64,000 bases of DNA from Bacteroidota bacterium (GTDB lineage: Bacteria; Bacteroidota; Bacteroidia; Bacteroidales; JAAUTT01), in contig JAJYAG010000001.1 of assembly GCA_021779665.1 (NCBI GenBank), positions 67,396-131,395 of the forward strand, written 5' to 3'. Positions 531 to 31,365 of the stretch are shown here, one piece after another. Positions within the stretch are counted from its first letter, which is position 1. Each line of letters begins with the position of its first letter. The notes under the pieces were generated by a model. That model was given only the letters and a program-made list of their open reading frames with translations, was not told the DNA's origin and made no database searches. The position numbers and the translations under genes are program-made.

Positions 531-1211
531 TCAAGCCGCCCGGGCAGGTTTTCTAAACATAAAAAAAGCAATGGCGATGAGATAAATATATGAATTAAGC
601 ATCATCAGCCGCTGCCACAAACCCTGATAGCTACTTAGAAAGTTACTTTTATCGTTCGAAATCCGAAATGAAAACAATATCAAAAAGAATATACCCATTA
701 TAAACACAACATTCGAAACTTTGTGGAAGAAAGGAAATTCAGCATCAGCGATTACTTTTTTCATTACAAGTGGTAATACTAATATTGCTACAATGCCAAT
801 CCCACCGAGTACATCGTGAATCACAGCCGATGAGGTTAATACCCCTCCTAAATGATGGTTCGCCTTAAAGGCGCCTGACCCGATGCCTTCGCCCGCCCCA
901 TATACCGCTATAAGCCATGAAGCCGTTGCAGAAGCTTTGCCTTGCGACCTAAAGGCGAAATAAACTCCAATTCCATAAAATATGAAAAGCAATCCCGCAA
1001 CAATCCACCATGCAGACATTTGATCGGATACCGGGCTTATGGAGGCTCCTAATGAGCTCATTGTGTTTTTCATTTGACTGTATCCGGTGAAATAACTTCC
1101 CAGAATAAACATCACTGCAAAATCGCCCACACAGGCAATAATGCACGCAACTCCGGAGATTTTGACAATGCGGTTTGAAGTTAAATTATCATATTTTAAA
1201 AATTCCAACAT
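531..1211 (-). CDS. Polytopic membrane protein (DUF998-like)
   Basis: 226-aa ORF with about 6 hydrophobic segments. Its ATG overlaps the mprF stop (TAATG at 1209-1213), and it ends 20 nt before the next gene. The family assignment is from memory only. Confidence 0.5.
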   Translation of the reverse strand: MLEFLKYDNLTSNRIVKISGVACIIACVGDFAVMFILGSYFTGYSQMKNTMSSLGASISPVSDQMSAWWIVAGLLFIFYGIGVYFAFRSQGKASATASWLIAVYGAGEGIGSGAFKANHHLGGVLTSSAVIHDVLGGIGIVAILVLPLVMKKVIADAEFPFFHKVSNVVFIMGIFFLILFSFRISNDKSNFLSSYQGLWQRLMMLNSYIYLIAIAFFMFRKPARAA

Positions 1212-3817
1212 TAAGGTTTAATAACATTTGTTAAAACCGTGGGTAAAGAAAGTAAATCGTAATCGTGCGAATAAATCAAATACTGGTTATTCCATCGGGG
1301 AGAAAACTTCTCTTTAAATTCCCGCAAACCTTTATAATGCGAAAAAGCCTTTATTTTTTCATAGGCAAACTTCATCGATTTTTCCGGAAAAGTATGAGGA
1401 TCATTCAGTCCGCTCATGGGTGCAAGACCGAGGTTAACCGATGAATAATTCTGCTTCTTTAAATAATTAAAAAGTTCTACCAGTATAAAATCCATGATAC
1501 CATTGGGTGCATCGCTGGTTTTGCGGATCAGGTCGTAGGTACCTTCACCTTTGGCATAATCGGGAATTATATTTAAAAAGGCAATTATCTTTTCTTCGTG
1601 GTTTTCCACGGTAATTATTGTCTGTAATTTTAATTCCTCCCAAACAAACATCCCCTGTGAAAAAACAATCTCTTCTCTTTCAGTTTCCTTTAGCCATTCA
1701 TCGCTCACCGATTTTAATTTTTGTAGCAGCCCGTCCTTTATGGGTGGTGTGTGAACAGTTGCTTTCAGACCTTTATCACTTACCTTCTTTAAGGCGTTGC
1801 GAATGGATTTCTTACTGCCTCCTTCGAGCGAAAACGTGGTTAAATCGACAATTCCTTCCTGTCCAAGAAATAAATTCTTCTTTCCTAAGGTATTATATAT
1901 GTTTAAACTTTCCTCCGGAACCCTGTAATAAATGCTTTTCAACCCGTTTTCGTAACAAAATTGGTCGAATTGAGCAATACATACTTTAAGTTCGTTCAAG
2001 TTCTTTGCCACAGGGTTCTCCAGAACAACAGCAAAGTTTCCTGTTATCCGGTAAGCAATGAAGGCATTCTGGCTTTGCGATAGAAAAATCAGTTTATCCG
2101 AATAGGTTTTAAAATAATCAAGACCGGAGTTTCCGTAAGATTTTGAAAGTTCGGTTGCAGTAATTTTCTCATCGGTTAAAACATTCGTTTTAAGAATATA
2201 GGGTTGAATTAAGGTGTAAATCAGGAACCCGATCGATAATATACCGCTGATTTTGATTGAAACCACAAAATGAGCCGCAAATCCTCCAACGGGAACCAAA
2301 TCGGCACTGCCAACCAGAAAATAGTTCTGGAGTGTGTATTTTACGGCCTGAAGTAAACTAAAATCAATGTTAAAATATTTTTTATCGATAAAATAAAAAC
2401 CTATAATGCCGTATAGCAAAACAACAAACACGCTGAATATTGATGTTTGCAACCCAATTAAACGAAGACGCGGATTGTTTTTAATGTAATATTCCTTTCG
2501 TGTGACAAGCAGGATTGTTATAACAACACAGGCAACAATAGCTTCTTCAAAGTCTATAGCCTTTGTTAAATGCCCCACTGCTGAAATAACACTTAAAACG
2601 AGTGCAAACCACCAGGCGGTGCGTAACCCTTTCAGCATAAAAGTAGCTGTAACCAATAAAAACAAACCAGCCGTGAACACCAAATAGTTGGATGCATGAA
2701 TGGCCTGAACGGGTAAAAAGTTGGTTATCCGTGCCAATCTCCCGGCTATGGCCGGGGTGAGGACAGAAACAATATTTAGTATTCCCAGGCACAGCAACAG
2801 CAATGCCGGAATAACACGCATCAACAATTTATTTATTTTCAAAAGGAATGTAACGGCACCGGCAAGCAAGGGAGTCCAGAATTCAAAAAACCGGTACATA
2901 AAGGTAATTGCGATGGCTTCGACATTTCCAAAACCCATGCGAATGAGAATATAACTCATTGAAAATTCGATAGCTCCCAGTCCTCTCAAAAAAGGCGATA
3001 CAATTAAAAAAATAACCGAGACAATATAACCAATACAAGCAGCAAGCACCGAGGGTGTAAAGTTCAAAGCCAGCATTGCAATAAGCAGATGGCTTATGCC
3101 GACTATTTCTATTAAAATGGAATAGAATACAGTTAATAAGAATTGGTTACGGTCAATTTTATTATTCTGTAAATCGTCCATAAACACTTCCGATTTAGGA
3201 AAAAGCTTTACCAATCCTTTAAATATTAAACCTTTACTTATTATTGAGCGATATGTCAAAATAATAAGTAAAGTCACCAAGGTAATGGAACCTAAAGCAA
3301 ACCATTCTCCCGAACCAACGGCTCCTTCAAACAATGCAAAAATGAATACAGGAATTGCCACAATAACCACCGAAAGAATCCCGATAAACCCATAAATTGA
3401 AGAAGCAAAGTAAATCTGTGTTTCTTTAACGCCCTTTTTCTCAATAGAGTTGGAAAAAAAAGCTAACGACGACACTCCTCCTGCCGGCAGAAAAACACTT
3501 ATAAAGTTTCGTTTCAAAAATAGTGTGACAGTGTCGGACAGGGATACTTTACTTTTAACTGCTGCAAACGACGAGGAATACATGAGTCCCTGAAGTATAA
3601 TATAAACCGCAGTCCAGACTAAGCCCAAAATTACCCATTGCCATCTGGCATTTGTAAGCGAATGGCTTATCTGAAACAACTCGGCTTTTTCGTGCTTAAT
3701 AAACCAGATGCCAATACCAATAAAAAATACCCCAAAAACAAATTGTGCAATTATTCTTCCGTTACCCCTGATGAAAGGAACACTTCTTTCTTTGAAAAAC
3801 AGAACTACTGAATTCAT
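1211..3817 (-). CDS. mprF: Aminoacyl(lysyl)-phosphatidylglycerol synthase/flippase, MprF family
   Basis: 868 aa. The N-terminal ~520 aa is a polytopic membrane region. The C-terminal soluble domain carries blocks typical of the aminoacyl-PG synthase domain (AFIAYRITGNFAVVLENPV, DLIRKTSDAPNGIMDFILVELFNYLK, SVNLGLAPMSG, GLREFKEKFSPRW). Confidence 0.85.
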   Translation of the reverse strand: MNSVVLFFKERSVPFIRGNGRIIAQFVFGVFFIGIGIWFIKHEKAELFQISHSLTNARWQWVILGLVWTAVYIILQGLMYSSSFAAVKSKVSLSDTVTLFLKRNFISVFLPAGGVSSLAFFSNSIEKKGVKETQIYFASSIYGFIGILSVVIVAIPVFIFALFEGAVGSGEWFALGSITLVTLLIILTYRSIISKGLIFKGLVKLFPKSEVFMDDLQNNKIDRNQFLLTVFYSILIEIVGISHLLIAMLALNFTPSVLAACIGYIVSVIFLIVSPFLRGLGAIEFSMSYILIRMGFGNVEAIAITFMYRFFEFWTPLLAGAVTFLLKINKLLMRVIPALLLLCLGILNIVSVLTPAIAGRLARITNFLPVQAIHASNYLVFTAGLFLLVTATFMLKGLRTAWWFALVLSVISAVGHLTKAIDFEEAIVACVVITILLVTRKEYYIKNNPRLRLIGLQTSIFSVFVVLLYGIIGFYFIDKKYFNIDFSLLQAVKYTLQNYFLVGSADLVPVGGFAAHFVVSIKISGILSIGFLIYTLIQPYILKTNVLTDEKITATELSKSYGNSGLDYFKTYSDKLIFLSQSQNAFIAYRITGNFAVVLENPVAKNLNELKVCIAQFDQFCYENGLKSIYYRVPEESLNIYNTLGKKNLFLGQEGIVDLTTFSLEGGSKKSIRNALKKVSDKGLKATVHTPPIKDGLLQKLKSVSDEWLKETEREEIVFSQGMFVWEELKLQTIITVENHEEKIIAFLNIIPDYAKGEGTYDLIRKTSDAPNGIMDFILVELFNYLKKQNYSSVNLGLAPMSGLNDPHTFPEKSMKFAYEKIKAFSHYKGLREFKEKFSPRWNNQYLIYSHDYDLLSLPTVLTNVIKP

Positions 3818-8614: not shown

Positions 8615-9727
8615 TTATATTGTAAAAAAGGAAGTATACTCTACGAGTTTTTCACTATGCTCGTCTACATTATGCGCAGTATTGGCCAGTTCTTCGGATG
8701 ATGTAGCACTCATTTGCGATGAATTGTTGAGCTGCTGGATAGAAAGGTTAATCTGCGAAGCCCCGGCATTTTGCTCAATGGAAGCCATGCTAATCTCATT
8801 TATCAGCGATCCGGCTCTTTGAATACGGGGAACAATTTCACCGATAATCTGGTTTGTTTCACCTGTTATCGACAAACTCCGGCGGGAAAGATCCTGAATT
8901 TCCTCCGAAGCTATTTTACTTTTCTCGGCCAAGCGACGTACTTCGGTTGCAACCACGGCAAATCCTTTCCCGTGATCGCCGGCCCTGGCAGCTTCAACGG
9001 CTGCATTTAGTGCCAGAATATTGGTCTGGAATGCAATATCGTTGATGATACTTATCTTTTCGGCTATGTTATTTACGGCAGCAAGACTTTCTTGCGATTT
9101 TAAGAGGATCGCTTTAATCTGATCGCCAATGATCTTCGATTCGTTTTCAGTTTCTTTTGCATTATTTGCATTTTGCTGAATACTGGAAGCAATCTCTTCC
9201 ATAGAAGCCGATATCTCCTGGATGGCAGCAGCCTGGTTAGCAATAATTTGCGATAACTGCTGAGAGTTGTCGTTTATCTCTTTACCTGCGCCCTTCAGGT
9301 CATTGGAAACTATAACAATATTTCCGATAGCGCCTTTCATCTTATCCGAAAGGTTCTTTACAGCATTCGAAATTCTTCCGAATTCATTATTTTCCTTTAG
9401 TTCCTTTTCGTTTATTTCAACAGTTAGATCGCCCTGCGAAATCAAATCGAGCTTTTCCGAAATTTTTTGTAATGGATTTTTAATAATTCTCAGCATAATA
9501 AAAAATGCTGCGAATATGCCTGCCCAGCAAAACGGTAATCCCCACCAGATATGGTGAAGACCTTTTGCTCCCAGGATAAAAGTCACCAGCGGCATTGTTT
9601 CGAAAATAATCAGCATTACCATTCCGATTTTGAATATTATCGTTTTCTTAAACAATAATTTCATCGAAAACCAATAGATAGGAATAAGTGCGAGGAGAAC
9701 CAATTCAAAAATTAAAGTACTGTCCAT
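8615..9727 (-). CDS. Methyl-accepting chemotaxis protein (membrane-embedded N-terminus, HAMP, MCP signalling domain)
   Basis: 370 aa. Hydrophobic N-terminus with no sizeable periplasmic domain, and a HAMP-like [22 protein letters not shown]. The conserved hairpin-tip block [37 protein letters not shown] is present. Confidence 0.85.
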
Positions 9728-11169: not shown

Positions 11170-12501
11170 CTAAATCATTCCCCTCGCCTTCAGCTCTAAG
11201 TATTTGTTGATGGTATTGAGCGATAATTCCGACGGAACCGATTTGATACATGCAATGCCGTGATTGGTAAGTTCCGAAACTATCTGGTTCTTTTCGTGAA
11301 GATATTTACGGGCCATGGTTTGTTCGTAAATGCCCATGATATCACTGACTGGATTCTTACTCATGCCTGCAACAGCATCGTTCTCAAAAAACATCACTAC
11401 CAGCAGGTGTAATTTGCTGATTTGCCGCAGGATAGGTAGAACTCTCTCAAAAGCATGAAGGCTCTCGAAATTGGTGTAAAGAAATATCAGGCTGCGGTGC
11501 TTGATAACATTGCGCACCAAGTGGTATAAGAGTTCGTATTCTGCCTCCAGCACATGTTCCTTCTCGTTGTACAATGCTTCCAGAATTTTCCGCAGTTGCT
11601 GCGAGTTTTTATCGGCGGGAATTACAGAGCCAATTTTATCGGAAAAGGTTATCAGACCTGCTTTGTCATGCTTTTGGAGTACCACATTCGAAATTACCAG
11701 TGAGGTGTTGATTGAATAATCGAGCAGCGTAAGCCCATTGAAAGGCATGTGCATGGAACGGCTTTTGTCGATGATGGAATAGACCTGTTGGGAACGTTCT
11801 TCCTCATATTGGTTTACCATCAGCGAACCCCTTCTGCTGCTTGCTTTCCAGTTGATGCTGCGACTGTCGTCTCCAATTACATATTCCTTTACCTGGTCGA
11901 ATTCGTAGCTGTGGCCAATTCTCCGGCGCCGCTTAATGCCTTCGTTGAGTTGATGTGATGGCCCCGATTTAAGTTCAAATTTCTTCATCTGCACAATGGA
12001 TGGATATACCTTCACCATCGTATGGCGGTCAACGGTTATTTTTCTGCTGATCAAACCCAGCGTGGATTGCACAAACAAATTAATATTCCCGAAATTATAT
12101 TCTCCTCTTTTAACAGGAGTTACTTCGTACTTTAAAAGGGTTTCTTCATCATTGCCGAGTGCAGCTTCAAATTTCAGGTCACGGATCTGGAACTGGCAGG
12201 GCAATTCGTCAATTACGGTCAGCCAGACTTTCAGCTTTGATGTATTACGAACCAGAATCTCAATGTGGTTTTCGTCACCCAGCGTCATAATACTGGGGAG
12301 ATGGCGTTTCACCTCAAAGGTTCTGTTTTTATTGAAAAGAAGAAGTATATCGGCAAGCGAAGCGGTAAGCAGCGCAATGAGCAAAAACTGTCCCAAAGGA
12401 AACAGCCAGTGTACCGTAAAACTGAACGCAAAAAGCACCACCGCAGCTGAGCCAACGACGAAGAACCTCGATGTGAGAAATATTTGCCTGTATATGCGCA
12501 T
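11170..12501 (-). CDS. DUF58 (vWA-like) protein with an N-terminal membrane anchor
   Basis: 443 aa. Contains the DUF58 block GHSYEFDQVKEYVIGDDSRSINWKASSRRGSLMVNQYEEERSQ. The start overlaps the moxR stop by 1 nt. Confidence 0.8.
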   Translation of the reverse strand: MRIYRQIFLTSRFFVVGSAAVVLFAFSFTVHWLFPLGQFLLIALLTASLADILLLFNKNRTFEVKRHLPSIMTLGDENHIEILVRNTSKLKVWLTVIDELPCQFQIRDLKFEAALGNDEETLLKYEVTPVKRGEYNFGNINLFVQSTLGLISRKITVDRHTMVKVYPSIVQMKKFELKSGPSHQLNEGIKRRRRIGHSYEFDQVKEYVIGDDSRSINWKASSRRGSLMVNQYEEERSQQVYSIIDKSRSMHMPFNGLTLLDYSINTSLVISNVVLQKHDKAGLITFSDKIGSVIPADKNSQQLRKILEALYNEKEHVLEAEYELLYHLVRNVIKHRSLIFLYTNFESLHAFERVLPILRQISKLHLLVVMFFENDAVAGMSKNPVSDIMGIYEQTMARKYLHEKNQIVSELTNHGIACIKSVPSELSLNTINKYLELKARGMI

Positions 12502-13520
12502 TACCTTGGCACTTCTATTTTCTGGATGATGTCCTTTATAATATCTTCAGCATCCACCCCTTCAATTTCGCGTTCGGGAACGAGAATGATACGGTGATTC
12601 AGCACCGGGTATGCAACTTTCTGAATATCGTCGGGCGTAACAAAGTCGCGGCCGTTGATTGCTGCTATGGCTTTCGATGTGCGAAGGATAGCAATGGAAG
12701 CTCTTGGCGATGCCCCCAGGAACAGGTTAGAATTGCTGCGGGTATTATTTACAATGTTTGCGACATAAGCAAGCAGTTCATCCTTAACATGCACCTTCTC
12801 GACAATAGAGCATAAATTGATCAGATCTTTGGCTTTATAAACCTTCTGAACATCTTTTTCGATCCGGTTAAAGAAGTCTGATTTAAAGCGCGAAAGTATA
12901 CCAATTTCTTCTTCTACCGAAGGATATCCGATTTTGATGCGGAACATAAACCTGTCGAGTTCAGCCTCGGGAAGCCGGTAGGTTCCCTCCTGCTCTATCG
13001 GATTTTGGGTGGCGATTACATAGAGCGGATAATCCAAACGATGGGTTTCGCCATCGACTGTAATCTGACGCTCTTCCATTACCTCAAAAAGAGCCGACTG
13101 GGTTTTAGCCGGGGCACGGTTTATTTCGTCGGCCAGGATGATATTGCTGAAAACAGGTCCCTTCCGGAAGAAAAACGAAGCCGACTGCATATTGTAAACC
13201 GTGGTACCAATAACGTCGGACGGCATCAGGTCAGGTGTAAACTGAATTCTTTTATATTCGGCATCGAGTATGTTGGCCAACAGCTTCACAAGCAATGTCT
13301 TTGCAATACCTGGAACGCCCTCTATCAAAACATGGCCGTTGGTAAGCAGACCAACCGTTAAAAGTTCAATGGTATTGTCCATCCCGACAATGACTTTCTG
13401 GAGCTCGGTTTTCACCTTCAGGGCAAAATCCATAACTTCGCTCACATCAATATAAGTGTTGCTTTCTGTTGCAGTTGGTTCTGCATTGGCGTCAGGATCG
13501 TTCAAAATGTTTTCTTCCAT
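12501..13520 (-). CDS. moxR: MoxR-family AAA+ ATPase
   Basis: 339 aa. Contains Walker A GVPGIAKT, Walker B/sensor [28 protein letters not shown], and [22 protein letters not shown]. Confidence 0.9.
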
Positions 13521-14765
13521 TTACTTGCAGTTTTTGTAAAAGTTTTCGATTTGAGTGTGTAGTTTTATTAACGACTTAGGTTCGTAAACCGGGTTGTAAA
13601 CCACGTCGCCGTATGCTTCAAAAAGTTTGTCGAGTTCACTTTCGGGAATTCCCGATAAGGGAGCAAGAATTTTTGGCGTGTCTTTTTTGCTCAGGTTAGG
13701 CGAAATTCCATATTTATGCTTCACAAACGAGAGAAACTGTTTCATCATTTCTTCGGCAATATAAATGTTGGAATTGTTCTTAAAATAAAGTGTGGCAATG
13801 GAGTTGATAAATTCCACTGTTGTATTGGTGTTCGCTGGTATAAGCGGAATCTGGGCTTGTTTTCGTTTTGAATTGAAAACAACAAACAACAATATCAGTC
13901 CTCCAATCAGGTACCAGGCCCACCGCAGACTTTTTTCGGAAAGAATAAAGCGCAACGGCGATTCCTGAGTCGAGGTTATATTGGTATTATCCAAACCCGA
14001 TTTGCTGAATTCGTCCCACAAAATGCGCGGCTTTTTGTATTCGGAGAACATCTGATTGATGTACAGGTATCCGTTCTCTTTGGAAAGGTTGTAATTGGTA
14101 AAGAACAACGGATTGGAATGAAATATGAACCATCCTTTTCCGTGTTTAACACGCATAGTTTCTACAATTACATTGCCTATTCGCGAAACTGGCTCGAAAC
14201 CATACATCGAAAGAGAATCTCTTAGAAAGAGACTGTCCAGTCCCAGCCATTTGTATTTTGCTTTTTTAGGTCCGTTTTTATAGTCGAACTTATAATATTT
14301 CTCAGGATTCAACCTGTCGAAGTTAGCCTCTACAACAGAATCATTAATATAGTTGAAGGTTAGCATGGGAAACCGGTCATCGGTAAGGTGACCGTAAATA
14401 TAATGCTCCGATCCAATGCTGGAGATAAAGGCATTATTTCCGCGGTGAACAAAGTCCAGCAGTTTTTCCGACAGGATACTGTCTCCAACAAAATTCTCTC
14501 CGATAAATATATAAAGCACTCCGGTATCTTCTTTGGCAATGTAATTTTGAGCCGGATTATCTATCAACACAAAATTGTTTTTTTTGCAAGAGGTTGAAAT
14601 TAAATCTGCCGCAAGCTTTAGCCCATATGGTTGGGCGTTATCGTACAAATAATTCTCGTTCCACCTGTATTTAGGACTATAACTCCTGAAATGGAAATAA
14701 AGCACGGTGCCAATGAGAATCACAGCACAAACAATAAGAATTACTATTTTATTGATGGATTTCAC
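13521..14765 (-). CDS. Membrane protein, DUF4350-like
   Basis: 414 aa with an N-terminal TM and a second TM (WAWYLIGGLILLFVVF). Its stop abuts the moxR ATG. The family call rests on its position in the conserved MoxR/DUF58 neighbourhood and is from memory. Confidence 0.55.
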   Translation of the reverse strand: MKSINKIVILIVCAVILIGTVLYFHFRSYSPKYRWNENYLYDNAQPYGLKLAADLISTSCKKNNFVLIDNPAQNYIAKEDTGVLYIFIGENFVGDSILSEKLLDFVHRGNNAFISSIGSEHYIYGHLTDDRFPMLTFNYINDSVVEANFDRLNPEKYYKFDYKNGPKKAKYKWLGLDSLFLRDSLSMYGFEPVSRIGNVIVETMRVKHGKGWFIFHSNPLFFTNYNLSKENGYLYINQMFSEYKKPRILWDEFSKSGLDNTNITSTQESPLRFILSEKSLRWAWYLIGGLILLFVVFNSKRKQAQIPLIPANTNTTVEFINSIATLYFKNNSNIYIAEEMMKQFLSFVKHKYGISPNLSKKDTPKILAPLSGIPESELDKLFEAYGDVVYNPVYEPKSLIKLHTQIENFYKNCK

Positions 14766-15495
14766 GCGGCTCTATTAATTGTTGTATTTGTTCAAAAATG
14801 GGAATAATTCCTGTGTATTCACGCTCGGTAATGGCTATTTCGCCATACCAGATTCTTTCAAATTGCAGCGTTAGTTTCCTGAATAAATCAAATTCTCTTT
14901 TTCCATACATTTCTCTCAGATAATGGCCGTTGGTTTTATCTTTTTTCCAGGCAACAAATTTATGCTTGTTTAGCAACCTCAAAAGCATCAGATACCGGAG
15001 TCGTACAGCTTCCTTGTACTCGCCCGACTTTAAGGCATACTGCAGATCGCCGTCAAGATTTGCTTTTTCAATATTTTCGTACCCGGAACCCATACGCGGC
15101 TTAATTTCGGGTAAGGATTGGTTTGAGGGACTCCGGAAGAGGCTTACAATCAAAACCACCATCAATAGCAAAAGAGCAATAGCAACAAAGGCTATAAACA
15201 GATAAACGATTCCTGAATTCCCTGAGAAAAATGGTAGGAAAAAAGAGCCTTCTTCGCGATCAGAACTTTCATCTTGATCAGCTTTCCCTTTTATCTTTTT
15301 ACCATCCCGGTTAATATTCTTTTCTGATTTCTTTTTCTGGCTTTTTTTCGGATTGCTCTCATTGTAATTGTACTCCCGGGCATGTTTTTGCCAATTTTCC
15401 TTGCTGACAAACCGCTGGTTATCCTGACTGAAGGCACCCGGGCCCTTCAAAAGCAAGGCAAGAATAAAAAAGATAATTAGTTTAAGGCGGTTCAT
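14749..15495 (-). CDS. DUF4129-like protein (signal peptide/TM, Lys- and Glu-rich linker)
   Basis: 248 aa. The C-terminal block RLRYLMLLRLLNKHKFVAWKKDKTNGHYL...FERIWYGE is typical of DUF4129. It overlaps the downstream gene by 17 nt. Confidence 0.6.
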   Translation of the reverse strand: MNRLKLIIFFILALLLKGPGAFSQDNQRFVSKENWQKHAREYNYNESNPKKSQKKKSEKNINRDGKKIKGKADQDESSDREEGSFFLPFFSGNSGIVYLFIAFVAIALLLLMVVLIVSLFRSPSNQSLPEIKPRMGSGYENIEKANLDGDLQYALKSGEYKEAVRLRYLMLLRLLNKHKFVAWKKDKTNGHYLREMYGKREFDLFRKLTLQFERIWYGEIAITEREYTGIIPIFEQIQQLIEPREIHQ

Positions 15496-17330
15496 CGGTT
15501 ATGCTCCTTTTCGAATCCAAATAAAACTTTTCTTTCGCCAAACATGTCAATTCGCTGGTTCAGACTTTCGGCCATCGAGATTTCCCTGAAAGCATAATAA
15601 TTGAATATCGACGTGGCTATTAGAAAATATGAATAAACTGAAATGATTGCAATGGTCAGGAACGAAAGTATAAAAATTTCGAGCAGATAGGTCGTTTGCT
15701 CGTCATATTTAAAGTTCATAAGGAACATTTGGATGTAGTTCCAGGCAACTTCTGTATTCAGCAAAACATAAAACACCACGATAAATACAAATATTTTGAA
15801 ACTGTTAACGAATTGCTTCCCCCAGGAATTATTGAGCAAACCAATGGTTTCTGCAATTGCCAGCGGAAAATTTACTTTCTCGATATAGCTCTTATAAACC
15901 GTCGTAAACAGGACCGGACTCAGCAAAATAAATGAGGTTACTCCCCAGAAAACCCCAAAATAGAAAGGCAGTAACACCAAAAATGAAGAAAGTAATGACG
16001 AGGAAATCAGGTAAAGATATCCTGACCTCCTTTGGGTGTCGTTTTCCAGAATTTTGCGGACACTACCCGAAAGATTAATCTGCAGCATCGTCAATGTTGC
16101 TATTCCTATCCAGAAATGCGATTTTATGCAATTGAGGTTAAAAAAAGTAAAAAACGAATGTGAATCAACATCCAGCTCATTTGTAGTCTGATAAGAAGAA
16201 AATGCAAGGGTTGCAAAGGAATGCAGCAAAGCAAATCCCGACACCATCAATAAAAATGGCAGAATATTACTGCTGAAATACTTGAATGAATTTCCAATTA
16301 TTTCGGATGCATTTAATATCCTGCTGAAGTCGTAAACTACCGGTTCTTTGTAACTTAGCTTTTCCGATTCGTTTACCACATACATCCGGCGCTTTTTCAG
16401 GTACCACGGATACCAGACAAAATAAAACAGAATAAAGGACAGCGAAAGTACGATAACCGCGATTCTTACAAAATCAGGAATATTGGTATAGCGTGTTATG
16501 AAGCTTTCGATAAAGCCGGCCAGAACAATAAGCGGCGTGATCCCGAGAAAAATCTTCAACCCTCTGAGGGCAGATATTTTCAAGGAATTAATACGCGAAT
16601 AGGTTCCGGGAAAAACCAACCCTCTTCCTAATGTCAACCCTGCAGCTCCTGCAATGATAATGCACGATATTTCAATGGTTCCATGTTGCCAGATGGTCAG
16701 GAACGATTCCTTAAAAAGTCCCCTTTCGACGAAAAAGTATTGAAAAACACCCACCATTATTCCGTTGCGAAGCAAAGCAAGTACAGTGCCAACCGACATA
16801 AATACGCCCAACACGAAAGTATACATGGCAACCGTAAGGTTATTGATGGTAATGCCCAGAAACATATGGGCTTCGTTGGCTTTTTTATAAACGGCCATCG
16901 GATCCTTGGTCTTAATATTTTCGATGGTCATCTGGACATAGTCGTTTCCGAGAATAAGCCGCGCAAATTCTTTGTCGTATATGCTGGAAAGTACGCCAAT
17001 GCCCATGGCCAGTATAAAAATGATGAACGAAATCCTGAATTCTTTACGAGCACAGTGTATCTGATATGGTAAATCGTATTTCCAGAATTTTACAAAACCC
17101 TGCATGCCGGTCGACTGATTCTGGTAAAGATTATTAAAGAGCAGCTGGGCAATTCCGTTCAGGTAAACACGTACCGAGCGGTATTTGAAAAAAGTACGGG
17201 CATACGATAAATCGTCGGTTACCTGAATAAACAACTTGCTATGTCGGGTTTTTAAGTTTTCGGTTCGAAGGTCAGTTTCGAATTCCAACCAATTTTTCTT
17301 ATTTTGTTCGACGAATTTTGATTCTTTCAT
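15492..17330 (-). CDS. Large polytopic membrane protein, SpoIIM/DUF95-like N-terminal half
   Basis: 612 aa. The cytoplasmic N-terminus KFVEQNKKNWLEFE is followed by many TM segments. It overlaps the next gene by 4 nt (ATGA). Confidence 0.6.
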   Translation of the reverse strand: MKESKFVEQNKKNWLEFETDLRTENLKTRHSKLFIQVTDDLSYARTFFKYRSVRVYLNGIAQLLFNNLYQNQSTGMQGFVKFWKYDLPYQIHCARKEFRISFIIFILAMGIGVLSSIYDKEFARLILGNDYVQMTIENIKTKDPMAVYKKANEAHMFLGITINNLTVAMYTFVLGVFMSVGTVLALLRNGIMVGVFQYFFVERGLFKESFLTIWQHGTIEISCIIIAGAAGLTLGRGLVFPGTYSRINSLKISALRGLKIFLGITPLIVLAGFIESFITRYTNIPDFVRIAVIVLSLSFILFYFVWYPWYLKKRRMYVVNESEKLSYKEPVVYDFSRILNASEIIGNSFKYFSSNILPFLLMVSGFALLHSFATLAFSSYQTTNELDVDSHSFFTFFNLNCIKSHFWIGIATLTMLQINLSGSVRKILENDTQRRSGYLYLISSSLLSSFLVLLPFYFGVFWGVTSFILLSPVLFTTVYKSYIEKVNFPLAIAETIGLLNNSWGKQFVNSFKIFVFIVVFYVLLNTEVAWNYIQMFLMNFKYDEQTTYLLEIFILSFLTIAIISVYSYFLIATSIFNYYAFREISMAESLNQRIDMFGERKVLFGFEKEHNR

Positions 17331-17379
17331 TTACCGTCTTTCTTATATGCGAATTAAGTAAAATTTTGGAAACCTCTAT

Positions 17380-18099
17380 ATGAAAAAGATAAATATTACT
17401 ACCACACAAAACGTAACCATCGAATACGAACTTGCAAGCGTTACCGAAAGATCTGTTTCCACTGTAATCGACCTTATTATTATTTATCTGGGAAGCCTCA
17501 TTATTTATGCTTTTTCATCCATATTTATTGACAAAGCTTCGCTCATATATCTATTTATTTCTACACCGGCGGCTTTCTTTTACCATTTGCTGTCCGAAAC
17601 ATTAAATCACGGACAAACTTTGGGTAAAAAAATTATGAAGGTCCGTGTAGTTAAAATCAACGGTGAACGTCCGGGGTTTTTCGATTTTCTGATGCGCACC
17701 GTTTTTCGTTTTATCGATATTACTTTAACAGCTGGAACCCTGGCACTGATTACCGTTTCGTCGACCGAAAAAGGTCAGCGGTTAGGCGATTTTCTTGCCG
17801 ACACCACGGTTGTAAAACTGATCAATGCAAACCGTTTCTCTTTGAGTCGCATCCTTTCCATGGAAAACCTGAAAAACTACACTCCTGTTTATCCGGGCGT
17901 GGTTAAATTTAAAGAAGAAGAAATGCTCCTTATTAAAGAAACACTTGACCGACTTGCTAAATACCCTACTGATAATCATATAGATGCCCGCAACAAGCTG
18001 GTGTATAAGATTGAGAAGCAACTTGGTGTAGTTGCTCCTCATGATAAAAATCTGTTTTTAAAAACTTTGATAAAAGATTTTGTAAGTCTTACACGCTAA
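17380..18099 (+). CDS. RDD-family membrane protein
   Basis: 239 aa. Contains TVIDLIIIYLG ... GQTLGKKIMKVRVV ... LMRTVFRFIDI. Divergent from the SpoIIM-like gene across a 49-bp gap. Confidence 0.75.
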   Translation: MKKINITTTQNVTIEYELASVTERSVSTVIDLIIIYLGSLIIYAFSSIFIDKASLIYLFISTPAAFFYHLLSETLNHGQTLGKKIMKVRVVKINGERPGFFDFLMRTVFRFIDITLTAGTLALITVSSTEKGQRLGDFLADTTVVKLINANRFSLSRILSMENLKNYTPVYPGVVKFKEEEMLLIKETLDRLAKYPTDNHIDARNKLVYKIEKQLGVVAPHDKNLFLKTLIKDFVSLTR

Positions 18100-18101
18100 A
18101 A

Positions 18102-18545
18102 TTAATCGTTAACTACTTGTGTATAGGTAATAGAGTCGTGCCAGCCGTTATTTCCCCCAAGAAAAGACAACGGCTCCAGCGGGATAATGCGGCAAAGACT
18201 TCTTTTAAAAATAGTTCCGGTTGAAGCAACGGAATTGTCATCATTTAAGACTCTGGTTCCTGTAATCATTTTACCAATAGTTTTGCCGGTCGTACTTTCA
18301 AGAATGGTATAATACAAAATTAGTACGGAGTAACCGATCAGATAAGAAGTTAGGGTACTCATTTCTCCATTCTCAGGGAAAGCAACTGCATAGAGCATTC
18401 CGCATATAAAGATTAAAATTAAGAGTACAATCCTGTCGATTATATAATTTGCGAACCGCTTACCAGTGCTGGCATACTCATAAACTTCGGCTTTGGAATT
18501 TGACTGATCAAAAACTCCGGAGTCCAGAATTTCGTTATTTTCCAT
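18102..18545 (-). CDS. RDD-family membrane protein (second copy)
   Basis: 147 aa. Contains KRFANYIIDRIVLLIL ... GKTIGKMITGTRVL ... FKRSLCRIIP. Convergent with 17380..18099 across a 2-nt gap. Confidence 0.75.
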   Translation of the reverse strand: MENNEILDSGVFDQSNSKAEVYEYASTGKRFANYIIDRIVLLILIFICGMLYAVAFPENGEMSTLTSYLIGYSVLILYYTILESTTGKTIGKMITGTRVLNDDNSVASTGTIFKRSLCRIIPLEPLSFLGGNNGWHDSITYTQVVND

Positions 18546-18731: not shown

Positions 18732-20153
18732 TTATTTAAGTCTCATTAACCTGAATTCCCCTTCAATGAAGTGCATATCGGAGGTTTGACACTGATCGTG
18801 GTACCCTGGTTTATCTTCGTAAATTCTACCGGAGAAAGAACCTTCCATGATCTGGTTCGGACCTTTAAATTGAGTCAACGTTACAGTTGCACTTTCACTT
18901 ACTGCAACACGGTCACAAACTCCGTTCTTAACAGATCGGTTGTAGTAATCCAGTTCATAGCTGACTCCGGGCACAGGATCATATTCTAAAACTTCATCGC
19001 CGTTATTATTCAAACCAATCAAATGATGAGTGCCTTCGGAGGGGTTTTCAAGTTTCAGATTGAAAATTTTTGAGACAGCAGAACCGGTATAACTTGCAAC
19101 TATCTCGAGCATATTATTTTCGACGCCACACACTACAAGTGAAAAATTATTCGGATCGGGAGGAGTTGCAGTGCTAAATCCGTATTGGTAATATTCTACC
19201 GTTTTCCCGTCGACTTTGATGATTACAAAAAAATCGGATTCAACCACAGTTATGTTGGATGTAACCATAAACGACCAGTTACCACCCGTTTTGTTGCTTG
19301 CTTCAAGCTGAACTGTAACCGCAACAGGATTGCCTGAAGGTATTTTGGCGGGAGCCGTATACGTGGCAGCAAATCCCGATGGCTGCAAATTTCCGTTGGT
19401 GTTGCTCACAGGGGCAGCTACGCCGTTTAAAGTCCATTGTTTGGCTTTGAAGCCCATAAGGCGCTCTGTAGCCAGTGGTGTTAGCGGGGTAAGATCATCA
19501 GTTAATTTTACAATGGGCCGCAGCGGCACCAGTTCTTCGTCATCTTTTGAATCTCCTTTCGAGAAACCCCTGAGTTGAAGTGAAATGGACTGACCTTTCA
19601 TGACGATAGTTGAAACAGGATCCAGCGAAAAGTCGATAAAACGCCCGAGTGACCAGTCACTGAAGTGTGCAGTTTCCACGCTCACCGTATTTGCACTTTT
19701 GTCAACTGTACTTTTGAGCATGGCGTTCCAGCTGCCATCCACAGCCTGCGAAACAATCCAGAGAAAATCTTCCGGGGTTTGCTTCAGATCCGCATCCTGG
19801 TAGTGAAATACAATTTTTACAGGCTTGGAAAATGTAGTACCCTCGGGTAACAAACGGTAACCCATGCCAATTCCAAGAGGTGCATTGTTTGAAATGGGCT
19901 GGATTGAAATTTTTGTATCTCCCGTTAAAGCTCCAGCCGGAATATTTAAGGACAGATTACCATCGGCTGAGTTTAAGTTTCCTCCTGAGGAGCCAATGGT
20001 GGCTGATGAAACATTTCCGACAGGGATTCCGATTTCGGTAATCACCGGATCTTCATTCTGAGGAGGCTCCGGATCGTTAGTTTCGCACGAAACTGTGAAA
20101 ATCCCCAATAGCAAAATCAATGAAAAATGCTGAAAAGAATACAGGTTCTTCAT
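18732..20153 (-). CDS. Hypothetical lipoprotein
   Basis: 473 aa. Signal peptide with a lipobox-like LGIFTVSC. Beta-rich, with no recognisable catalytic motifs. Confidence 0.6.
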   Translation of the reverse strand: MKNLYSFQHFSLILLLGIFTVSCETNDPEPPQNEDPVITEIGIPVGNVSSATIGSSGGNLNSADGNLSLNIPAGALTGDTKISIQPISNNAPLGIGMGYRLLPEGTTFSKPVKIVFHYQDADLKQTPEDFLWIVSQAVDGSWNAMLKSTVDKSANTVSVETAHFSDWSLGRFIDFSLDPVSTIVMKGQSISLQLRGFSKGDSKDDEELVPLRPIVKLTDDLTPLTPLATERLMGFKAKQWTLNGVAAPVSNTNGNLQPSGFAATYTAPAKIPSGNPVAVTVQLEASNKTGGNWSFMVTSNITVVESDFFVIIKVDGKTVEYYQYGFSTATPPDPNNFSLVVCGVENNMLEIVASYTGSAVSKIFNLKLENPSEGTHHLIGLNNNGDEVLEYDPVPGVSYELDYYNRSVKNGVCDRVAVSESATVTLTQFKGPNQIMEGSFSGRIYEDKPGYHDQCQTSDMHFIEGEFRLMRLK

Positions 20154-27311: not shown

Positions 27312-28058
27312 ATGAACCGGATACACGCAATGATATGCCTGTTTCTTTTTCCTGCTGCAGTTTTTGCACAGGATGCAAAGGAAATAGTAAAGAAAGCCGA
27401 TGCCAAAATGAAAGGAGAACAATCCAGCATCAGCCAGATGACCATGAAAATTGTCCGTCCTACCTGGGAACGGACGGTAAGCTTTAAAAGCTGGAGCAAA
27501 GGAACCGATTATTCGATGGTACTGATCACCGCTCCTGCTAAGGAAAAAGGACAATCGTTTCTGAAATTCAAACGCGACATGTGGAGCTGGAATCCATCCA
27601 TAAACCGCATGATCAAGCTGCCGCCTTCCATGCTCTCGCAGGGCTGGATGGGTTCAGACTTTACAAACGACGATCTGCTGAACGAATCTTCAATTGTAGT
27701 TGACTATACCCATAAATTACTTGGAAAAGAAACGGTTTCGGGGAAGAATTGCTTTAAAATAGAACTGATTCCCAAGGAAAACGCACCTGTTGTCTGGGGT
27801 AAAATTATTCTTTGGATTTCGACCGATGAGTATTTACAACTGAAATCGGAATACTTTGATGAGGACAATTATTTAGTGAAAACCGAAATTGCCTCCGATA
27901 TCAAAACCATGAGCGGTAGAGTGATTCCTACGCGTTTTGAACTCATTCCTGCTGATAAAGATGGTAATAAAACCATTCTCATTATGGACCAGATCGAATT
28001 TAACAGCCCCCTTTCGGAGAGCTTTTTTACACAGCAAAATATGAAGAAGCTGAGATAA
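27312..28058 (+). CDS. LolA-like outer-membrane lipoprotein-sorting protein
   Basis: 248 aa with a signal peptide. Contains GQSFLKFKRDMWSWNPSINRMIKLPPSMLSQGWMGSDFTNDDL, typical of the LolA_like family found beside FtsX-type ABC systems. Confidence 0.7.
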   Translation: MNRIHAMICLFLFPAAVFAQDAKEIVKKADAKMKGEQSSISQMTMKIVRPTWERTVSFKSWSKGTDYSMVLITAPAKEKGQSFLKFKRDMWSWNPSINRMIKLPPSMLSQGWMGSDFTNDDLLNESSIVVDYTHKLLGKETVSGKNCFKIELIPKENAPVVWGKIILWISTDEYLQLKSEYFDEDNYLVKTEIASDIKTMSGRVIPTRFELIPADKDGNKTILIMDQIEFNSPLSESFFTQQNMKKLR

Positions 28059-28076
28059 GAGGAGCCTCACCCCCTG

Positions 28077-28098
28077 CCCCTCTCCAAATGGAGAGGGG
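28077..28098 (+). repeat. GC-rich hairpin cccctctcc-aaat-ggagagggg
   Basis: Perfect 9-bp stem with a 4-nt loop, 19 nt after the stop at 28058. No T-run follows, so it is not a classical terminator. Confidence 0.6.
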
Positions 28099-28142
28099 AG
28101 AAGGAACGCGCAATGAGTTAAATAAGTGCTAAAAACGCTGTT

Positions 28143-28177
28143 TACTCAGTACTAAGTACTCATTACTAAATACTAAA
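28143..28177 (+). repeat. Five tandem heptamers TACTNAN
   Basis: The units are tactcag tactaag tactcat tactaaa tactaaa, ending 4 nt before the ATG at 28181. Confidence 0.8.
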
Positions 28178-28180
28178 AAC

Positions 28181-29398: not shown

Positions 29399-29417
29399 TT
29401 ATTTAAATATCACGATT

Positions 29418-30638: not shown

Positions 30639-30656
30639 TCAATAAAAATATTGACC

Positions 30657-31343: not shown

Positions 31344-31365
31344 GGAATAACAATAATATTCTGCT

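Follow-up and report, generated by a model that had tools for sequence, protein, structure and literature searches.

A conserved MoxR-DUF58 gene cluster in Bacteroidota, its membrane partners and a proposed role in the cell envelope

Related systems

MoxR ATPases and their vWA partners, e.g., NorQ/NorD and RavA/ViaA, are assembly or remodelling chaperones. In the Bat operons and the MoxR "MRP" operons, MoxR is directly followed by DUF58, and these operons resemble the cluster described here in phylum and membrane association, but Bat operons go on with the TM-anchored vWA proteins BatA and BatB and with BatC, BatD and BatE (TPR and others). Our cluster has no BatA-E-type vWA/TPR gene, and the separation from the Bat operon drawn in an earlier note on this DNA is thus correct. 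The MoxR-DUF58-transglutaminase clusters, such as the bifidobacterial PFNA operon, also couple the MoxR-DUF58 pair to a membrane protein; compared with the PFNA and TgpA clusters, however, no transglutaminase, kinase or FN3 domain is found here and DUF4129 is a stand-alone bitopic protein.

The comparative genomics of Makarova, Galperin and Koonin (2015) noted that bacterial SpoIIM homologs have a vWA protein and a COG0714 ATPase as neighbours. The archaeal neighbourhoods of that study share with our cluster the core triad of DUF4350, MoxR-type ATPase and vWA/DUF58, and their DUF4350 ectodomain was related to GldG and the flavodoxin-like fold. They carry S-layer/Ig-like proteins and their vWA protein was taken as secreted, whereas our cluster lacks such partners and its DUF58 domain is predicted to be cytoplasmic. 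RDD, DUF4129 and the family termed X below are not discussed in that paper. SpoIIM of Bacillus subtilis, a polytopic membrane protein of the same family (PF01944), belongs to the DMP engulfment complex and is a scaffold for extracytoplasmic cell-wall enzymes. Our host is a non-sporulating member of Bacteroidota without SpoIID/SpoIIP, and its protein carries additional DUF8413 and X domains; it is a member of the family and not a functional ortholog. The GIFT domains of OST48/WBP1 (an oligosaccharyltransferase accessory subunit), IFT52 and GldG (an accessory subunit of the gliding-motility ABC transporter) resemble DUF4350 in fold only, with 9-14 % identity; the complexes and organisms differ, and neither a glycosyltransferase nor an ABC transporter is associated with the cluster.

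The mycobacterial moxR2 neighbourhood (M. tuberculosis Rv3689-Rv3695, M. abscessus MAB_0386c-0392c) contains the same families by annotation, plus further membrane proteins, in another phylum with another envelope. The order and strands differ, with SpoIIM and RDD on the opposite side of MoxR-DUF58. Published annotation and an orthology table assign Rv3691 to DUF4350, Rv3692 to MoxR, Rv3693 to DUF58, Rv3694c to SpoIIM and Rv3695 to RDD, and Rv3691-Rv3695 shift their expression together. Both Rv3694c and Rv3695 were recovered, with PbpA and LamA, in a co-immunoprecipitation of the M. tuberculosis divisome protein Rv0954, an experiment whose list of numerous membrane proteins may reflect non-specific recovery. 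The literature searched holds no paper that gives the cluster a function and no experimental datum in any organism, in agreement with the earlier note. The cluster was judged to be neither a Bat operon nor a system for sporulation or defence.

Gene layout and recurrence

The cluster lies within a 64-kb stretch of DNA (the window), to which all positions refer, and consists of the following genes and spacer:

11170-12501, minus strand: DUF58, 443 aa
12501-13520, minus strand: MoxR, 339 aa
13521-14765, minus strand: DUF4350, 414 aa, GTG start
14749-15495, minus strand: DUF4129, 248 aa
15492-17330, minus strand: SpoIIM-like protein (SpoIIM+X), 612 aa
17331-17379, no strand: divergent spacer of 49 bp between the SpoIIM+X operon and RDD1
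17380-18099, plus strand: RDD1, 239 aa, the cluster-specific RDD protein (Pfam RDD 8.8e-17)
18102-18545, minus strand: RDD2, 147 aa, a short paralogue with the RDD domain alone, convergent to RDD1 (Pfam RDD 4.9e-19)

Reading frames, junctions and the spacer were read from the sequence and agree with all coordinates given earlier, including the RDD gene divergent 49 bp upstream and the second one convergent to it. SpoIIM+X and DUF4129 overlap by 4 nt (ATGA, 15492-15495), DUF4129 and DUF4350 by 17 nt (14749-14765), and MoxR and DUF58 by 1 nt (TAATG, 12501), while the DUF4350 stop abuts the MoxR start (TAA/ATG, 13520/13521); the convergent stops of RDD1 and RDD2 are separated by 2 bp. No in-frame ATG lies near the GTG start of DUF4350, and the next start would truncate the first TM helix. 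Public gene calls on an identical contig (GCA_027352335.1, DAIEJK010000033.1) match all eight product lengths and the overlaps. Median gaps at the four junctions in related loci are -4, -4, +3 and -1 bp (n = 39-61 per junction), and since such small gaps recur, the tight packing is not due to chance. The spacer presumably holds shared or overlapping promoter elements; a scan for the sigma-70 consensus was uninformative in Bacteroidota. Neither a second MoxR nor a second DUF58 was found within the window.

Within Bacteroidota, a divergent RDD followed by SpoIIM(+X), DUF4129, DUF4350, MoxR and DUF58 is colinear in 33 of the 58 evaluable loci. About 15 of the 58, mostly from Saprospiraceae/Lewinellaceae, keep SpoIIM+X, sometimes with DUF4129, without a MoxR module within 9 kb, which suggests that the membrane core may work without MoxR or that the genes are simply unlinked there. 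Alpha- and Gammaproteobacteria have the same gene set with conserved domain and TM architectures and a shuffled order, i.e., DUF805-DUF4129-DUF4350-MoxR-DUF58-SpoIIM-RDD in Rhizobium and Paracoccus, and RDD-SpoIIM-(multi-TM+DUF4129 fusion)-DUF4350-MoxR-DUF58 in Catenovulum. Recurrence across phyla, as claimed in the earlier note, was therefore observed directly in Bacteroidota classes and in Alpha- and Gammaproteobacteria, and for mycobacteria (Rv3692/moxR2) it comes from the published orthology table. Gene fusions join components, namely SpoIIM to X and, in Catenovulum, a multi-TM protein to DUF4129. Conservation stops at the borders of the cluster: the neighbouring genes differ even in L004, a close relative, which indicates a self-contained unit. 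The cluster is real and widespread, and this copy is in no way unusual.

RDD1 orthologs adjoin SpoIIM in Sinomicrobium, Sphingobacterium, Rhizobium, Paracoccus and Catenovulum, and a divergent RDD lies less than 400 bp from SpoIIM in 40 of the 70 loci with at least 1 kb of upstream sequence. RDD2, which had been counted as a member of the cluster, is not conserved across loci: an extra RDD occupies its position only in the window, L004, L011, L047 and L075, follows DUF58 in L027, L045, L061, L066 and L074, and is missing from most loci. It is an occasional accessory or a chance neighbour outside the core.

Protein families and predicted topology

Topologies were derived from hydropathy and the positive-inside rule, and hydropathy places TM segments in all cluster products but MoxR, as had been noted. 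The profile comparison proposed beforehand gave strong matches for DUF58, AAA_3, SpoIIM and RDD; DUF4350 and DUF4129 hold at the family level and both score below the Pfam gathering score in this copy. All six families named earlier are present, but the modules number seven, since the 612-aa gene is a DUF8413+SpoIIM protein fused to an unnamed polytopic family (X), which some relatives encode as a gene of its own (hhalign 99.4 %). The domains of this protein and of DUF4350 are as follows:

17040-17330, minus strand: N-terminal four-helix cytoplasmic domain PF28475/DUF8413 (newer Pfam), aa 1-97
16389-17039, minus strand: SpoIIM (PF01944) six-helix membrane domain, aa 98-314
15492-16388, minus strand: X, a fast-evolving polytopic membrane domain without Pfam assignment, aa 315-612
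14001-14678, minus strand: DUF4350 periplasmic GIFT/class-I-glutamine-amidotransferase-like domain, aa ~30-255
13530-13823, minus strand: DUF4350 cytoplasmic C-terminal helical domain, aa 315-412

Precomputed annotation gives PF28475 for the identical protein (P0101), for all top 120 homologs and for neighbours in other loci; its helices span residues 2-23, 27-47, 51-72 and 76-93, and it is conserved from residue 1 in proteobacterial homologs. The SpoIIM domain covers the whole Pfam profile (1.2e-35), has the polar residues N164, H216-G217-x-x-E220, E275 and R280 invariant among 76 sequences, and finds no solved relative by sequence. X ends in a conserved cytoplasmic tail, YFSLxE...L..RI..IG. 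In RDD1, a conserved N-terminal strand-like motif precedes the RDD membrane domain, and a C-terminal extension of ~100 aa, missing from RDD2, follows it; the RDD proteins of Rhizobium and Paracoccus match profile positions 115-231, the extension included.

DUF4129 reaches 24.5 bits (2.8e-5) against a gathering score of 24.8, and the assignment holds at the family level because 57 of 65 orthologs match PF13559 (best E-value 4.6e-13). A signal peptide or anchor and a low-complexity periplasmic stretch precede the single TM helix at aa 97-119, and the DUF4129 domain behind it is cytoplasmic and carries the conserved motif KTNxxYxxE...WYG; A154, A163, R165, K187, T188, N189, Y192, E195, W216 and G218 are at least 90 % conserved. 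Against the Bacteroidota profile, hhalign gives 94 % for the alphaproteobacterial equivalents and 96 % for the C-terminal half of the Catenovulum protein. In a Streptomyces locus, a DUF4129 gene lies three genes from a DUF58 gene, TgpA-type transglutaminases are membrane proteins with a C-terminal DUF4129, and DUF4129 seems to accompany the MoxR-DUF58 engine repeatedly as a partner module.

For DUF4350 (21.5 bits, 3.2e-4, gathering score 30.4), the family assignment holds because the distant ones among 98 homologs carry PF14258 and the fold matches. A profile search returned 4758 clusters (50 % identity), of which 3083 had E<=1e-30. The protein is bitopic, with an N-terminal signal-anchor, a periplasmic alpha/beta domain and a second TM helix (aa 278-299), and its AlphaFold model has a pLDDT of 85. 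The ectodomain shares the GIFT/OST48 fold and is probably non-catalytic. A conserved juxtamembrane motif KRxQ...N follows the second TM helix (R301 and N314 invariant, K300 and Q303 at least 90 % conserved), and then come the tail helices 315-329, 333-352, 363-371, 375-390 and 396-412 (pLDDT about 80-94). K/R residues directly after this TM helix support a cytoplasmic tail, and the stretch after the TM helix of DUF4129 likewise has a K/R-rich start. The tail shows no detectable homology with the system's other cytoplasmic domains, and among the cytoplasmic domains of the cluster neither mutual homology nor a known interaction motif was found.

MoxR (AAA_3 2.9e-64, AAA_lid_2 1.8e-25) is soluble, cytoplasmic and the sole energy-transducing component of the cluster. 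Walker A (GVPGIAKT), Walker B (DE), the sensor-1 N, the Arg of LDRF and the sensor-2 GASPRAS are each at least 90 % conserved in 48 orthologs. Its nearest solved relative is the uncharacterised 2R44 of Cytophaga hutchinsonii (E 4.8e-87), followed by the AAA modules of Midasin, which unites such modules with a MIDAS domain. The DUF58 protein (Pfam DUF58 2.6e-19, VWA_2 7.8e-6) starts with two helices that form a membrane hairpin (aa 13-57), after which come a beta-rich region predicted to be cytoplasmic and a vWA-like domain; the two TMs also occur in the Rhizobium, Paracoccus and Catenovulum orthologs. Its K/R counts near the membrane (3, 0 and 4) predict N-in/C-in, and such residues at both cytoplasmic hairpin ends place the vWA-like domain on the MoxR side. 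The signature GDxxRxIxWKA is at least 90 % conserved. The MIDAS is non-canonical (D245 in 37/39, S247 in 30/39, V/S/A at position 249, the Asp of "TDG" replaced by Asn in 36/39), so this DUF58 subfamily may not capture ligands through a metal in the classical way.

A putative envelope machine and its alternatives

We lean towards the view that the operon products form one stoichiometric inner-membrane complex, assembled or remodelled from its cytoplasmic face by MoxR via DUF58. The polytopic core would comprise the SpoIIM-family protein fused to X and the divergently transcribed RDD1, joined by two putative bitopic subunits, DUF4129 with its conserved domain in the cytoplasm and DUF4350 with a periplasmic GIFT/OST48-like domain and a helical cytoplasmic tail. 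The cytoplasmic engine would be a MoxR AAA+ hexamer, held at the membrane by its presumed adaptor, the vWA-like DUF58 protein with its hairpin anchor. ATP hydrolysis by MoxR could act through DUF58 on the cytoplasmic domains of the membrane subunits and thereby assemble, disassemble or switch the membrane module. The output would be periplasmic, with the DUF4350 ectodomain binding or positioning an envelope component, for which a glycan, a cell-wall polymer or the enzymes acting on these are the most plausible candidates. We propose this role because OST48 and GldG serve as accessory subunits and B. subtilis SpoIIM as a scaffold; no envelope-polymer enzyme is encoded in the cluster or consistently adjoins it. 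We infer physical complex formation, MoxR action on the membrane module and an envelope-directed role, and an envelope-embedded ATP-driven assembly or remodelling machine would fit the predicted topologies and the folds. In favour of this reading are the conserved tight junctions, the recurrence of the gene set in shuffled order, the gene fusions, the self-contained unit, the predicted topologies, the intact MoxR motifs, the GIFT/OST48 fold of DUF4350, the established partnership of MoxR with vWA proteins and the M. tuberculosis co-immunoprecipitation. The degenerate MIDAS, the loci with SpoIIM+X but no nearby MoxR module and the absence of mutual homology or known interaction motifs among the cytoplasmic domains weigh against it.

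Makarova, Galperin and Koonin (2015) proposed export for the DUF4350-MoxR-vWA neighbourhoods, and here SpoIIM/X/RDD could be the conduit of a novel secretion system, with a GldG-like DUF4350 and with MoxR powering or gating the export of protein or polymer. We hold this to be unlikely: no candidate cargo, outer-membrane component or S-layer/Ig-like partner lies in or beside the bacterial cluster, MoxR ATPases are not known as translocation motors, DUF58 is predicted to be cytoplasmic here rather than secreted as in the archaeal model, and Foldseek gives no transporter match for SpoIIM+X. Unlikely to nearly the same degree, if a shade more so, is regulated ion or solute transport by RDD and/or a CysZ/EI24-like X, with MoxR-DUF58 as an assembly or gating factor by analogy with MoxR-type chaperones that insert metals into enzymes. 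An RDD-family cation/proton antiporter reportedly exists, which offers a further analogy. The link to CysZ is, however, weak and was confirmed neither by Foldseek nor by a profile search of PDB sequences, EI24 is matched by just one of 77 X orthologs, the cluster is not accompanied by a metalloenzyme or a substrate-binding protein, and the two bitopic subunits and the large GIFT ectodomain would be left without a role.

A role in phage defence or biological conflict, in the manner of MoxR-vWA systems, is highly improbable and was already disfavoured. MoxR does match Pfam bpMoxR (8.2e-13), PADLOC gives weak matches to IetA and DolB, and RDD1 matches the RDD-like C-terminus of PD-T4-6, but these are generic AAA+ or RDD similarities, with AAA_3 much stronger, and the remaining five proteins have no PADLOC match. 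No beta-propeller, effector or nuclease is present, the cluster is not located among mobile or defence genes, and instead of a patchy distribution it shows vertical conservation across entire phyla with its architecture unchanged. More probable than a conflict system, yet still improbable and slightly behind the transport reading, is a functional analogue of the Bat/MoxR-MRP stress operons, where MoxR-DUF58 would chiefly be a stress chaperone of enzymes in the cytoplasm or close to the membrane and so confer tolerance to oxidation or heat, with the membrane proteins serving localisation only. The same pair, MoxR then DUF58, heads the Bat operons, and deletion of the Bat-operon moxR in Riemerella alters heat and oxidative stress resistance. 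Against this, the defining BatA-E vWA/TPR genes are absent from the cluster and from the 64-kb window, and SpoIIM, X, DUF4129, DUF4350 and RDD differ from the Bat partners and are conserved across phyla, which points to a distinct client system.

Gene layout and protein families

An ORF check placed all seven genes of the cluster exactly where the earlier note had put them:

11170-12501, minus strand, DUF58 protein, 443 aa
12501-13520, minus strand, MoxR, 339 aa
13521-14765, minus strand, DUF4350 protein, 414 aa, start codon GTG
14749-15495, minus strand, DUF4129 protein, 248 aa
15492-17330, minus strand, SpoIIM-like protein, 612 aa
17380-18099, plus strand, RDD1, the divergent, cluster-specific RDD protein, 239 aa
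18102-18545, minus strand, RDD2, a short paralogue convergent to RDD1, 147 aa

Read from the sequence, the SpoIIM-like and DUF4129 genes overlap by 4 nt (ATGA), DUF4129 and DUF4350 overlap by 17 nt, an overlap that depends on the GTG start, the DUF4350 and MoxR genes abut (TAA followed directly by ATG), and MoxR and DUF58 share 1 nt (TAATG). The SpoIIM-like gene diverges from RDD1 across a 49-bp spacer, and the convergent stops of RDD1 and RDD2 are separated by 2 bp. The tight coupling and the RDD gene divergent at 49 bp, both claimed previously, were borne out by the sequence and by independent public gene calls, i.e., those for the identical contig in GCA_027352335.1, which agree on product lengths and overlaps; hydropathy likewise confirmed the claimed TM segments in all products except MoxR. 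A scan for sigma-70 and terminator consensus sequences gave no difference from shuffled sequence, this consensus being ill-suited to Bacteroidota promoters.

MoxR matches the full AAA_3 profile (PF07726, 2.9e-64) and AAA_lid_2 (1.8e-25). It is soluble, and its Walker A/B, sensor 1, Arg finger and sensor 2 are intact, with all these catalytic motifs conserved at 90 % or more across 48 orthologs. Searches of PDB sequences matched MoxR to 2R44 (E 4.8e-87) and returned no match for five cluster membrane proteins; NCBIfam holds no specific family model for any cluster membrane protein. The DUF58 protein matches PF01882 (2.6e-19) and VWA_2 (7.8e-6), and its conserved signature region G..EF...R.Y..GD..R.I.WK is followed by a vWA-like fold. 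The canonical vWA metal site (MIDAS, DxSxS...T...D) is absent from it, D245 and S247 alone being retained; position 249 is V, S or A (Ser in 8 of 39 orthologs), and the Asp of 'TDG' is replaced by Asn in 36 of the 39. Judged by these residues, the MIDAS is degenerate in the cluster subfamily. The DUF58 N-terminus forms a two-helix hairpin with K/R on both outer ends (3, 0, 4), hence the DUF58/vWA-like domain is predicted to lie on the cytoplasmic side, alongside MoxR.

Both RDD1 (8.8e-17) and RDD2 (4.9e-19) belong to the RDD family (PF06271). The DUF4129 protein scores 24.5 bits against PF13559 (2.8e-5), 0.3 bit under the cut-off of 24.8; its membership holds at the family level, with 57 of 65 positional orthologs matching the profile (best E 4.6e-13). 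Its predicted layout runs from a signal sequence through a periplasmic stretch of low complexity and a single TM helix to a cytoplasmic domain, which carries the conserved motif KTNxxYxxE...WYG. The DUF4350 protein scores 21.5 bits against PF14258 (3.2e-4; gathering score 30.4), and its 98 database homologs grade into PF14258-bearing proteins named DUF4350; equivalents from Catenovulum (45.9 bits) and Rhizobium (32.7 bits) pass the gathering score. Its AlphaFold model (pLDDT 85) has the fold expected for the family. An N-terminal signal/anchor precedes a periplasmic alpha/beta domain, a GldG/GIFT-like ectodomain of flavodoxin type, and the C-terminal, second TM helix is followed by a juxtamembrane motif, KRxQ...N, that is strongly conserved, and by a confidently modelled cytoplasmic helical domain. 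The family is large, as its subfamily profile found 4758 clusters at 50 % identity in a library of 1.84 billion proteins.

The SpoIIM-family protein and its conserved neighbourhood

The Pfam SpoIIM profile (PF01944) is matched in full (1-163 of 163, 1.2e-35) by residues 101-280 only of the 612-aa protein. Sinomicrobium and Sphingobacterium have two genes in its place, one of about 320 aa with PF28475 (DUF8413) and PF01944, to which residues 1-314 of the window protein align, and one of about 310 aa that is unannotated and polytopic, whose unnamed membrane domain we call X. The C-terminal half of the window protein (residues 315-612) had no BLASTP match to stand-alone X genes, and a word-indexed database search with it gave 2 matches only. 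HMMs seeded separately from the fused and split versions, however, converged on the same 80 ORFs, and a profile of 7 stand-alone X proteins aligned with 75 fused C-terminal halves over 271 columns (hhalign 99.4 %, E 5e-22; control TM profiles about 1 %). Iterated HMMs and profile-profile comparison thus established the homology of residues 315-612 to X, and the 612-aa gene is a fusion of SpoIIM to X. X is thus a seventh component, linked by gene fusion and missed in database annotation.

The fused protein begins with a four-helix cytoplasmic domain, continues with six TM helices and a K/R-rich linker, and ends with the X helices; N164, H216, E220, E275 and R280 are invariant polar residues of the SpoIIM TM region. 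When X was compared with the CysZ/EI24, GPDPase_memb and DUF4013/DUF975 class, a weak link to CysZ emerged that neither Foldseek nor a profile search of PDB sequences bore out, and 1 of 77 X orthologs matched EI24. Nothing points to SpoIIM of the sporulation DMP complex, as SpoIID and SpoIIP are both missing from the cluster and from the window as a whole, the host is an uncultured member of Bacteroidota represented by a MAG, and the SpoIIM-family protein here carries the additional DUF8413 and X domains.

A SpoIIM-alignment scan of genome contigs gave the best 80 loci, all from Bacteroidota, which were annotated with locally built HMMs; 58 were long enough to judge, not counting the window and its close relative L004. 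The full colinear set SpoIIM(+X)-DUF4129-DUF4350-MoxR-DUF58 is present in 33 of these 58, and a further 7 lack only the last one or two genes as detected by the local HMMs. SpoIIM+X is accompanied by DUF4129 alone in 6 loci and stands alone in 9, mostly from Saprospiraceae and Lewinellaceae, while X and DUF4129 in one locus (L064) have an oppositely oriented DUF58 gene upstream of them, and 2 loci have none of the partner genes of SpoIIM. In 56/58 loci, SpoIIM has X fused to it or next to it, and the median junction gaps across related loci are -4, -4, +3 and -1 bp. In the nine loci with solitary fused SpoIIM+X (L007, L010, L025, L044, L050, L057, L063, L067 and L071), the SpoIIM match lies at about 10001 in most, and no DUF4129, DUF4350, MoxR or DUF58 gene occurs over the 5-9 kb downstream. 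The explanation is either a split system in these genomes or a membrane core that functions without the MoxR module.

In 40 of 70 loci, a divergent RDD gene is found no more than 400 bp away. An extra RDD gene at the RDD2 position was seen only in the window, L004 and three other loci, and this rarity makes RDD2 accessory at most, not core; five further loci have an extra RDD gene downstream of DUF58. The genes flanking the cluster are not conserved beside it, not even in L004 (Bacteroidetes bacterium OH_CBlB_256), whose SpoIIM part is 96 % identical to that of the window and which keeps the RDD2-RDD1 pair; its different flanks imply that, between close relatives, the DNA around the cluster was rearranged while the cluster itself stayed intact. 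Two neighbours, an MFS transporter and a 473-aa lipoprotein-like protein, were rejected as members, not being conserved next to the cluster. The latter (18732-20153, minus strand) adjoins RDD2, has no Pfam match and has no relative in any of 83 related loci, L004 included, which places it outside the cluster.

Beyond Bacteroidota, a tblastn search of annotated plasmids and chromids with the SpoIIM part as query gave 56 records, among them the following gene orders:

Rhizobium beringeri: DUF805-DUF805-hyp251-hyp424-MoxR-DUF58-SpoIIM-RDD, with overlapping junctions
Paracoccus aminovorans: DUF805-hyp244-hyp441-MoxR-DUF58-SpoIIM-RDD
Catenovulum adriaticum: RDD-SpoIIM-hyp515-DUF4350-MoxR-DUF58

Among the proteobacterial "hypothetical" genes, some resemble DUF4129 (Pfam 1.4e-3; hhalign 94 % against the Bacteroidota profile) and others DUF4350 (Pfam 1.1e-7). 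The DUF4350-like proteins gave no hhalign link to the Bacteroidota profile (<10 %), and are connected to it by their Pfam matches and an identical TM architecture; TM architectures in general are nearly superimposable between the phyla. The 515-aa protein of Catenovulum (locus L086, 8941-10488), encoded between SpoIIM and DUF4350, joins a multi-TM domain to a DUF4129-like one (hhalign 96 %) and is a second independent fusion in the system. No match to X or to a Pfam family was obtained for its N-terminal half. The alphaproteobacterial operons open with one or two DUF805 genes at the place that X occupies in Bacteroidota (L084 2551-3649; L085 3251-3691); these genes encode small three-TM proteins with weak similarity to Yip1 (E 3.5e-4), and a 2015 paper described archaeal SpoIIM paralogs adjoining Yip1-family genes. 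Homology to X is unsupported for both the Catenovulum N-terminal half (hhalign 4 %) and DUF805 (1 %).

The Rhizobium SpoIIM query found no copies on actinobacterial plasmids, and the evidence for Actinobacteria comes from the literature: a published table equates DUF4350, MoxR, DUF58, SpoIIM and RDD genes of M. chelonae and M. abscessus with Rv3691-Rv3695, and in the same table the expression of these equivalents shifts together. In a Streptomyces locus, DUF4129 and DUF58 genes are three genes apart. The earlier note had held that this six-family neighbourhood recurs across phyla, and we agree, on the complete Bacteroidota loci, on Rhizobium, Paracoccus and Catenovulum, and for mycobacteria on published annotation. 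Finding one gene set in shuffled order and with independent fusions is classically taken to mark a functional unit, which suggests that these genes form one.

A putative MoxR-driven membrane complex

To our knowledge, few AAA+ systems without a known client are as widespread as the MoxR-DUF58 pairs, for which the neighbourhood offers candidate clients and partners in a defined and conserved set. The best-supported reading is that the cluster products form one inner-membrane complex. A MoxR hexamer would dock via the membrane-tethered DUF58 adaptor and act on the cytoplasmic face of the complex, i.e., the DUF4129 domain, the DUF4350 tail, the SpoIIM N-domain and the X tail, while the GIFT/OST48-like domain of DUF4350 would be the periplasmic output. 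That the products associate, that MoxR acts on them and that the substrate lies in the envelope is in each case inferred. The cytoplasmic domains do not appear to be repeats of one docking module, since all pairwise comparisons of the SpoIIM N-domain, X tail, DUF4350 tail, DUF4129, RDD1 tail and DUF58 N-region gave hhalign values of 8 % or less. On this analysis, a list of DUFs becomes a testable architecture with predicted cytoplasm-facing domains reachable by MoxR and a single periplasmic domain as the site to seek an envelope ligand.

OST48 and GldG serve as accessory subunits in membrane complexes that handle glycans or are associated with motility. These roles, together with MoxR-vWA chaperones, the SpoIIM scaffold and a co-immunoprecipitation in M. 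tuberculosis, lead us to favour a probable role in envelope assembly or remodelling. The MoxR-vWA pairs NorQ/NorD and RavA/ViaA are established assembly and remodelling chaperones. A 2025 review describes what DUF58 proteins do as not yet clarified. SpoIIM of B. subtilis is a membrane scaffold for extracytoplasmic cell-wall enzymes, and co-immunoprecipitation of the M. tuberculosis divisome protein Rv0954 recovered SpoIIM-like and RDD proteins, PbpA and LamA. The earlier interpretation as an ATP-driven envelope machine holds as far as it is testable, neither the HMM family checks nor the literature search having refuted it. The full-text literature searched, largely from outside the subscription journals, contained no functional assignment for the cluster. 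A 2015 paper by Makarova, Galperin and Koonin describes parts of the neighbourhood; a Riemerella MoxR paper concerns the Bat (Bacteroides aerotolerance) operon, and the MoxR/DUF58 genes of the M. smegmatis SigF regulon are a different locus.

Other roles have to be weighed against envelope assembly. An export system, as proposed in 2015, and a transporter assisted by MoxR both seem unlikely to us. A stress chaperone of the Bat-like kind, slightly less probable than these two, would draw on the MoxR-DUF58 head that the cluster has in common with the Bat operon, but the BatA/BatB vWA and BatC-E TPR proteins are absent; as the earlier note argued, this is not a Bat operon, with no further vWA or TPR genes in the cluster and no second MoxR or DUF58 in the 64-kb window. 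A role in defence is the least likely of all. The bpMoxR match that would suggest it (48 bits) is dwarfed by that of AAA_3 (215 bits), and PADLOC matched generic AAA+ and RDD, with none for DUF58, DUF4350, SpoIIM+X or RDD2, so an identity as a MoxR-vWA-beta-propeller conflict or anti-phage system was rejected.

More tentatively, and with doubts outweighing our confidence, we suggest that the cluster represents, in Bacteroidota, an ancient class of envelope machine that has so far gone unrecognised. Powered by MoxR and made up of a SpoIIM/X/RDD core with DUF4129 and OST48/GldG-like subunits, such a machine would build, export or remodel a cell-surface polymer. Such a class would be common to Bacteroidota, Proteobacteria and Actinobacteria including M. 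tuberculosis, would be related to archaeal DUF4350 systems, and would constitute a new secretion or assembly system, no variant of Bat or of a known pathway. If an envelope assembly or export machine is confirmed, it would fill a gap in the cell-envelope biology of several phyla. The window copy itself is the common fused SpoIIM+X form of a recognised, functionally uncharacterised neighbourhood and nothing exceptional; the value lies in the system as a widespread known-unknown with a now-testable architecture. It occurs in tractable hosts, i.e., Rhizobium leguminosarum chromids, Flavobacteriia, Sphingobacterium and mycobacteria, and also in M. tuberculosis.

Other genes in the window

A 1551-aa alpha-2-macroglobulin-like protein (42788-47443, minus strand) has MG2, A2M and TED domains and, in an unusual combination, a mid-region match to the TonB-dependent-receptor Plug (PF07715, E 4e-16, residues 699-811). 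The product of the next gene (47576-50524, 982 aa) is CarboxypepD_reg-like at its N-terminus, as is typical of TonB-dependent receptors. The genes at 27312-32568 (plus strand) encode a LolA-like protein, two FtsX/MacB_PCD permeases, a likely ABC ATPase (30651-31343) and a 400-aa protein without Pfam match, and look like a Lol/MacB-type lipoprotein-sorting or efflux operon. Ordinary genes encode an MprF-like lysyl-phosphatidylglycerol synthase (1211-3817, minus strand; LPG_synthase_TM and C) and a signalling protein of the methyl-accepting-chemotaxis type (8615-9727, minus strand).
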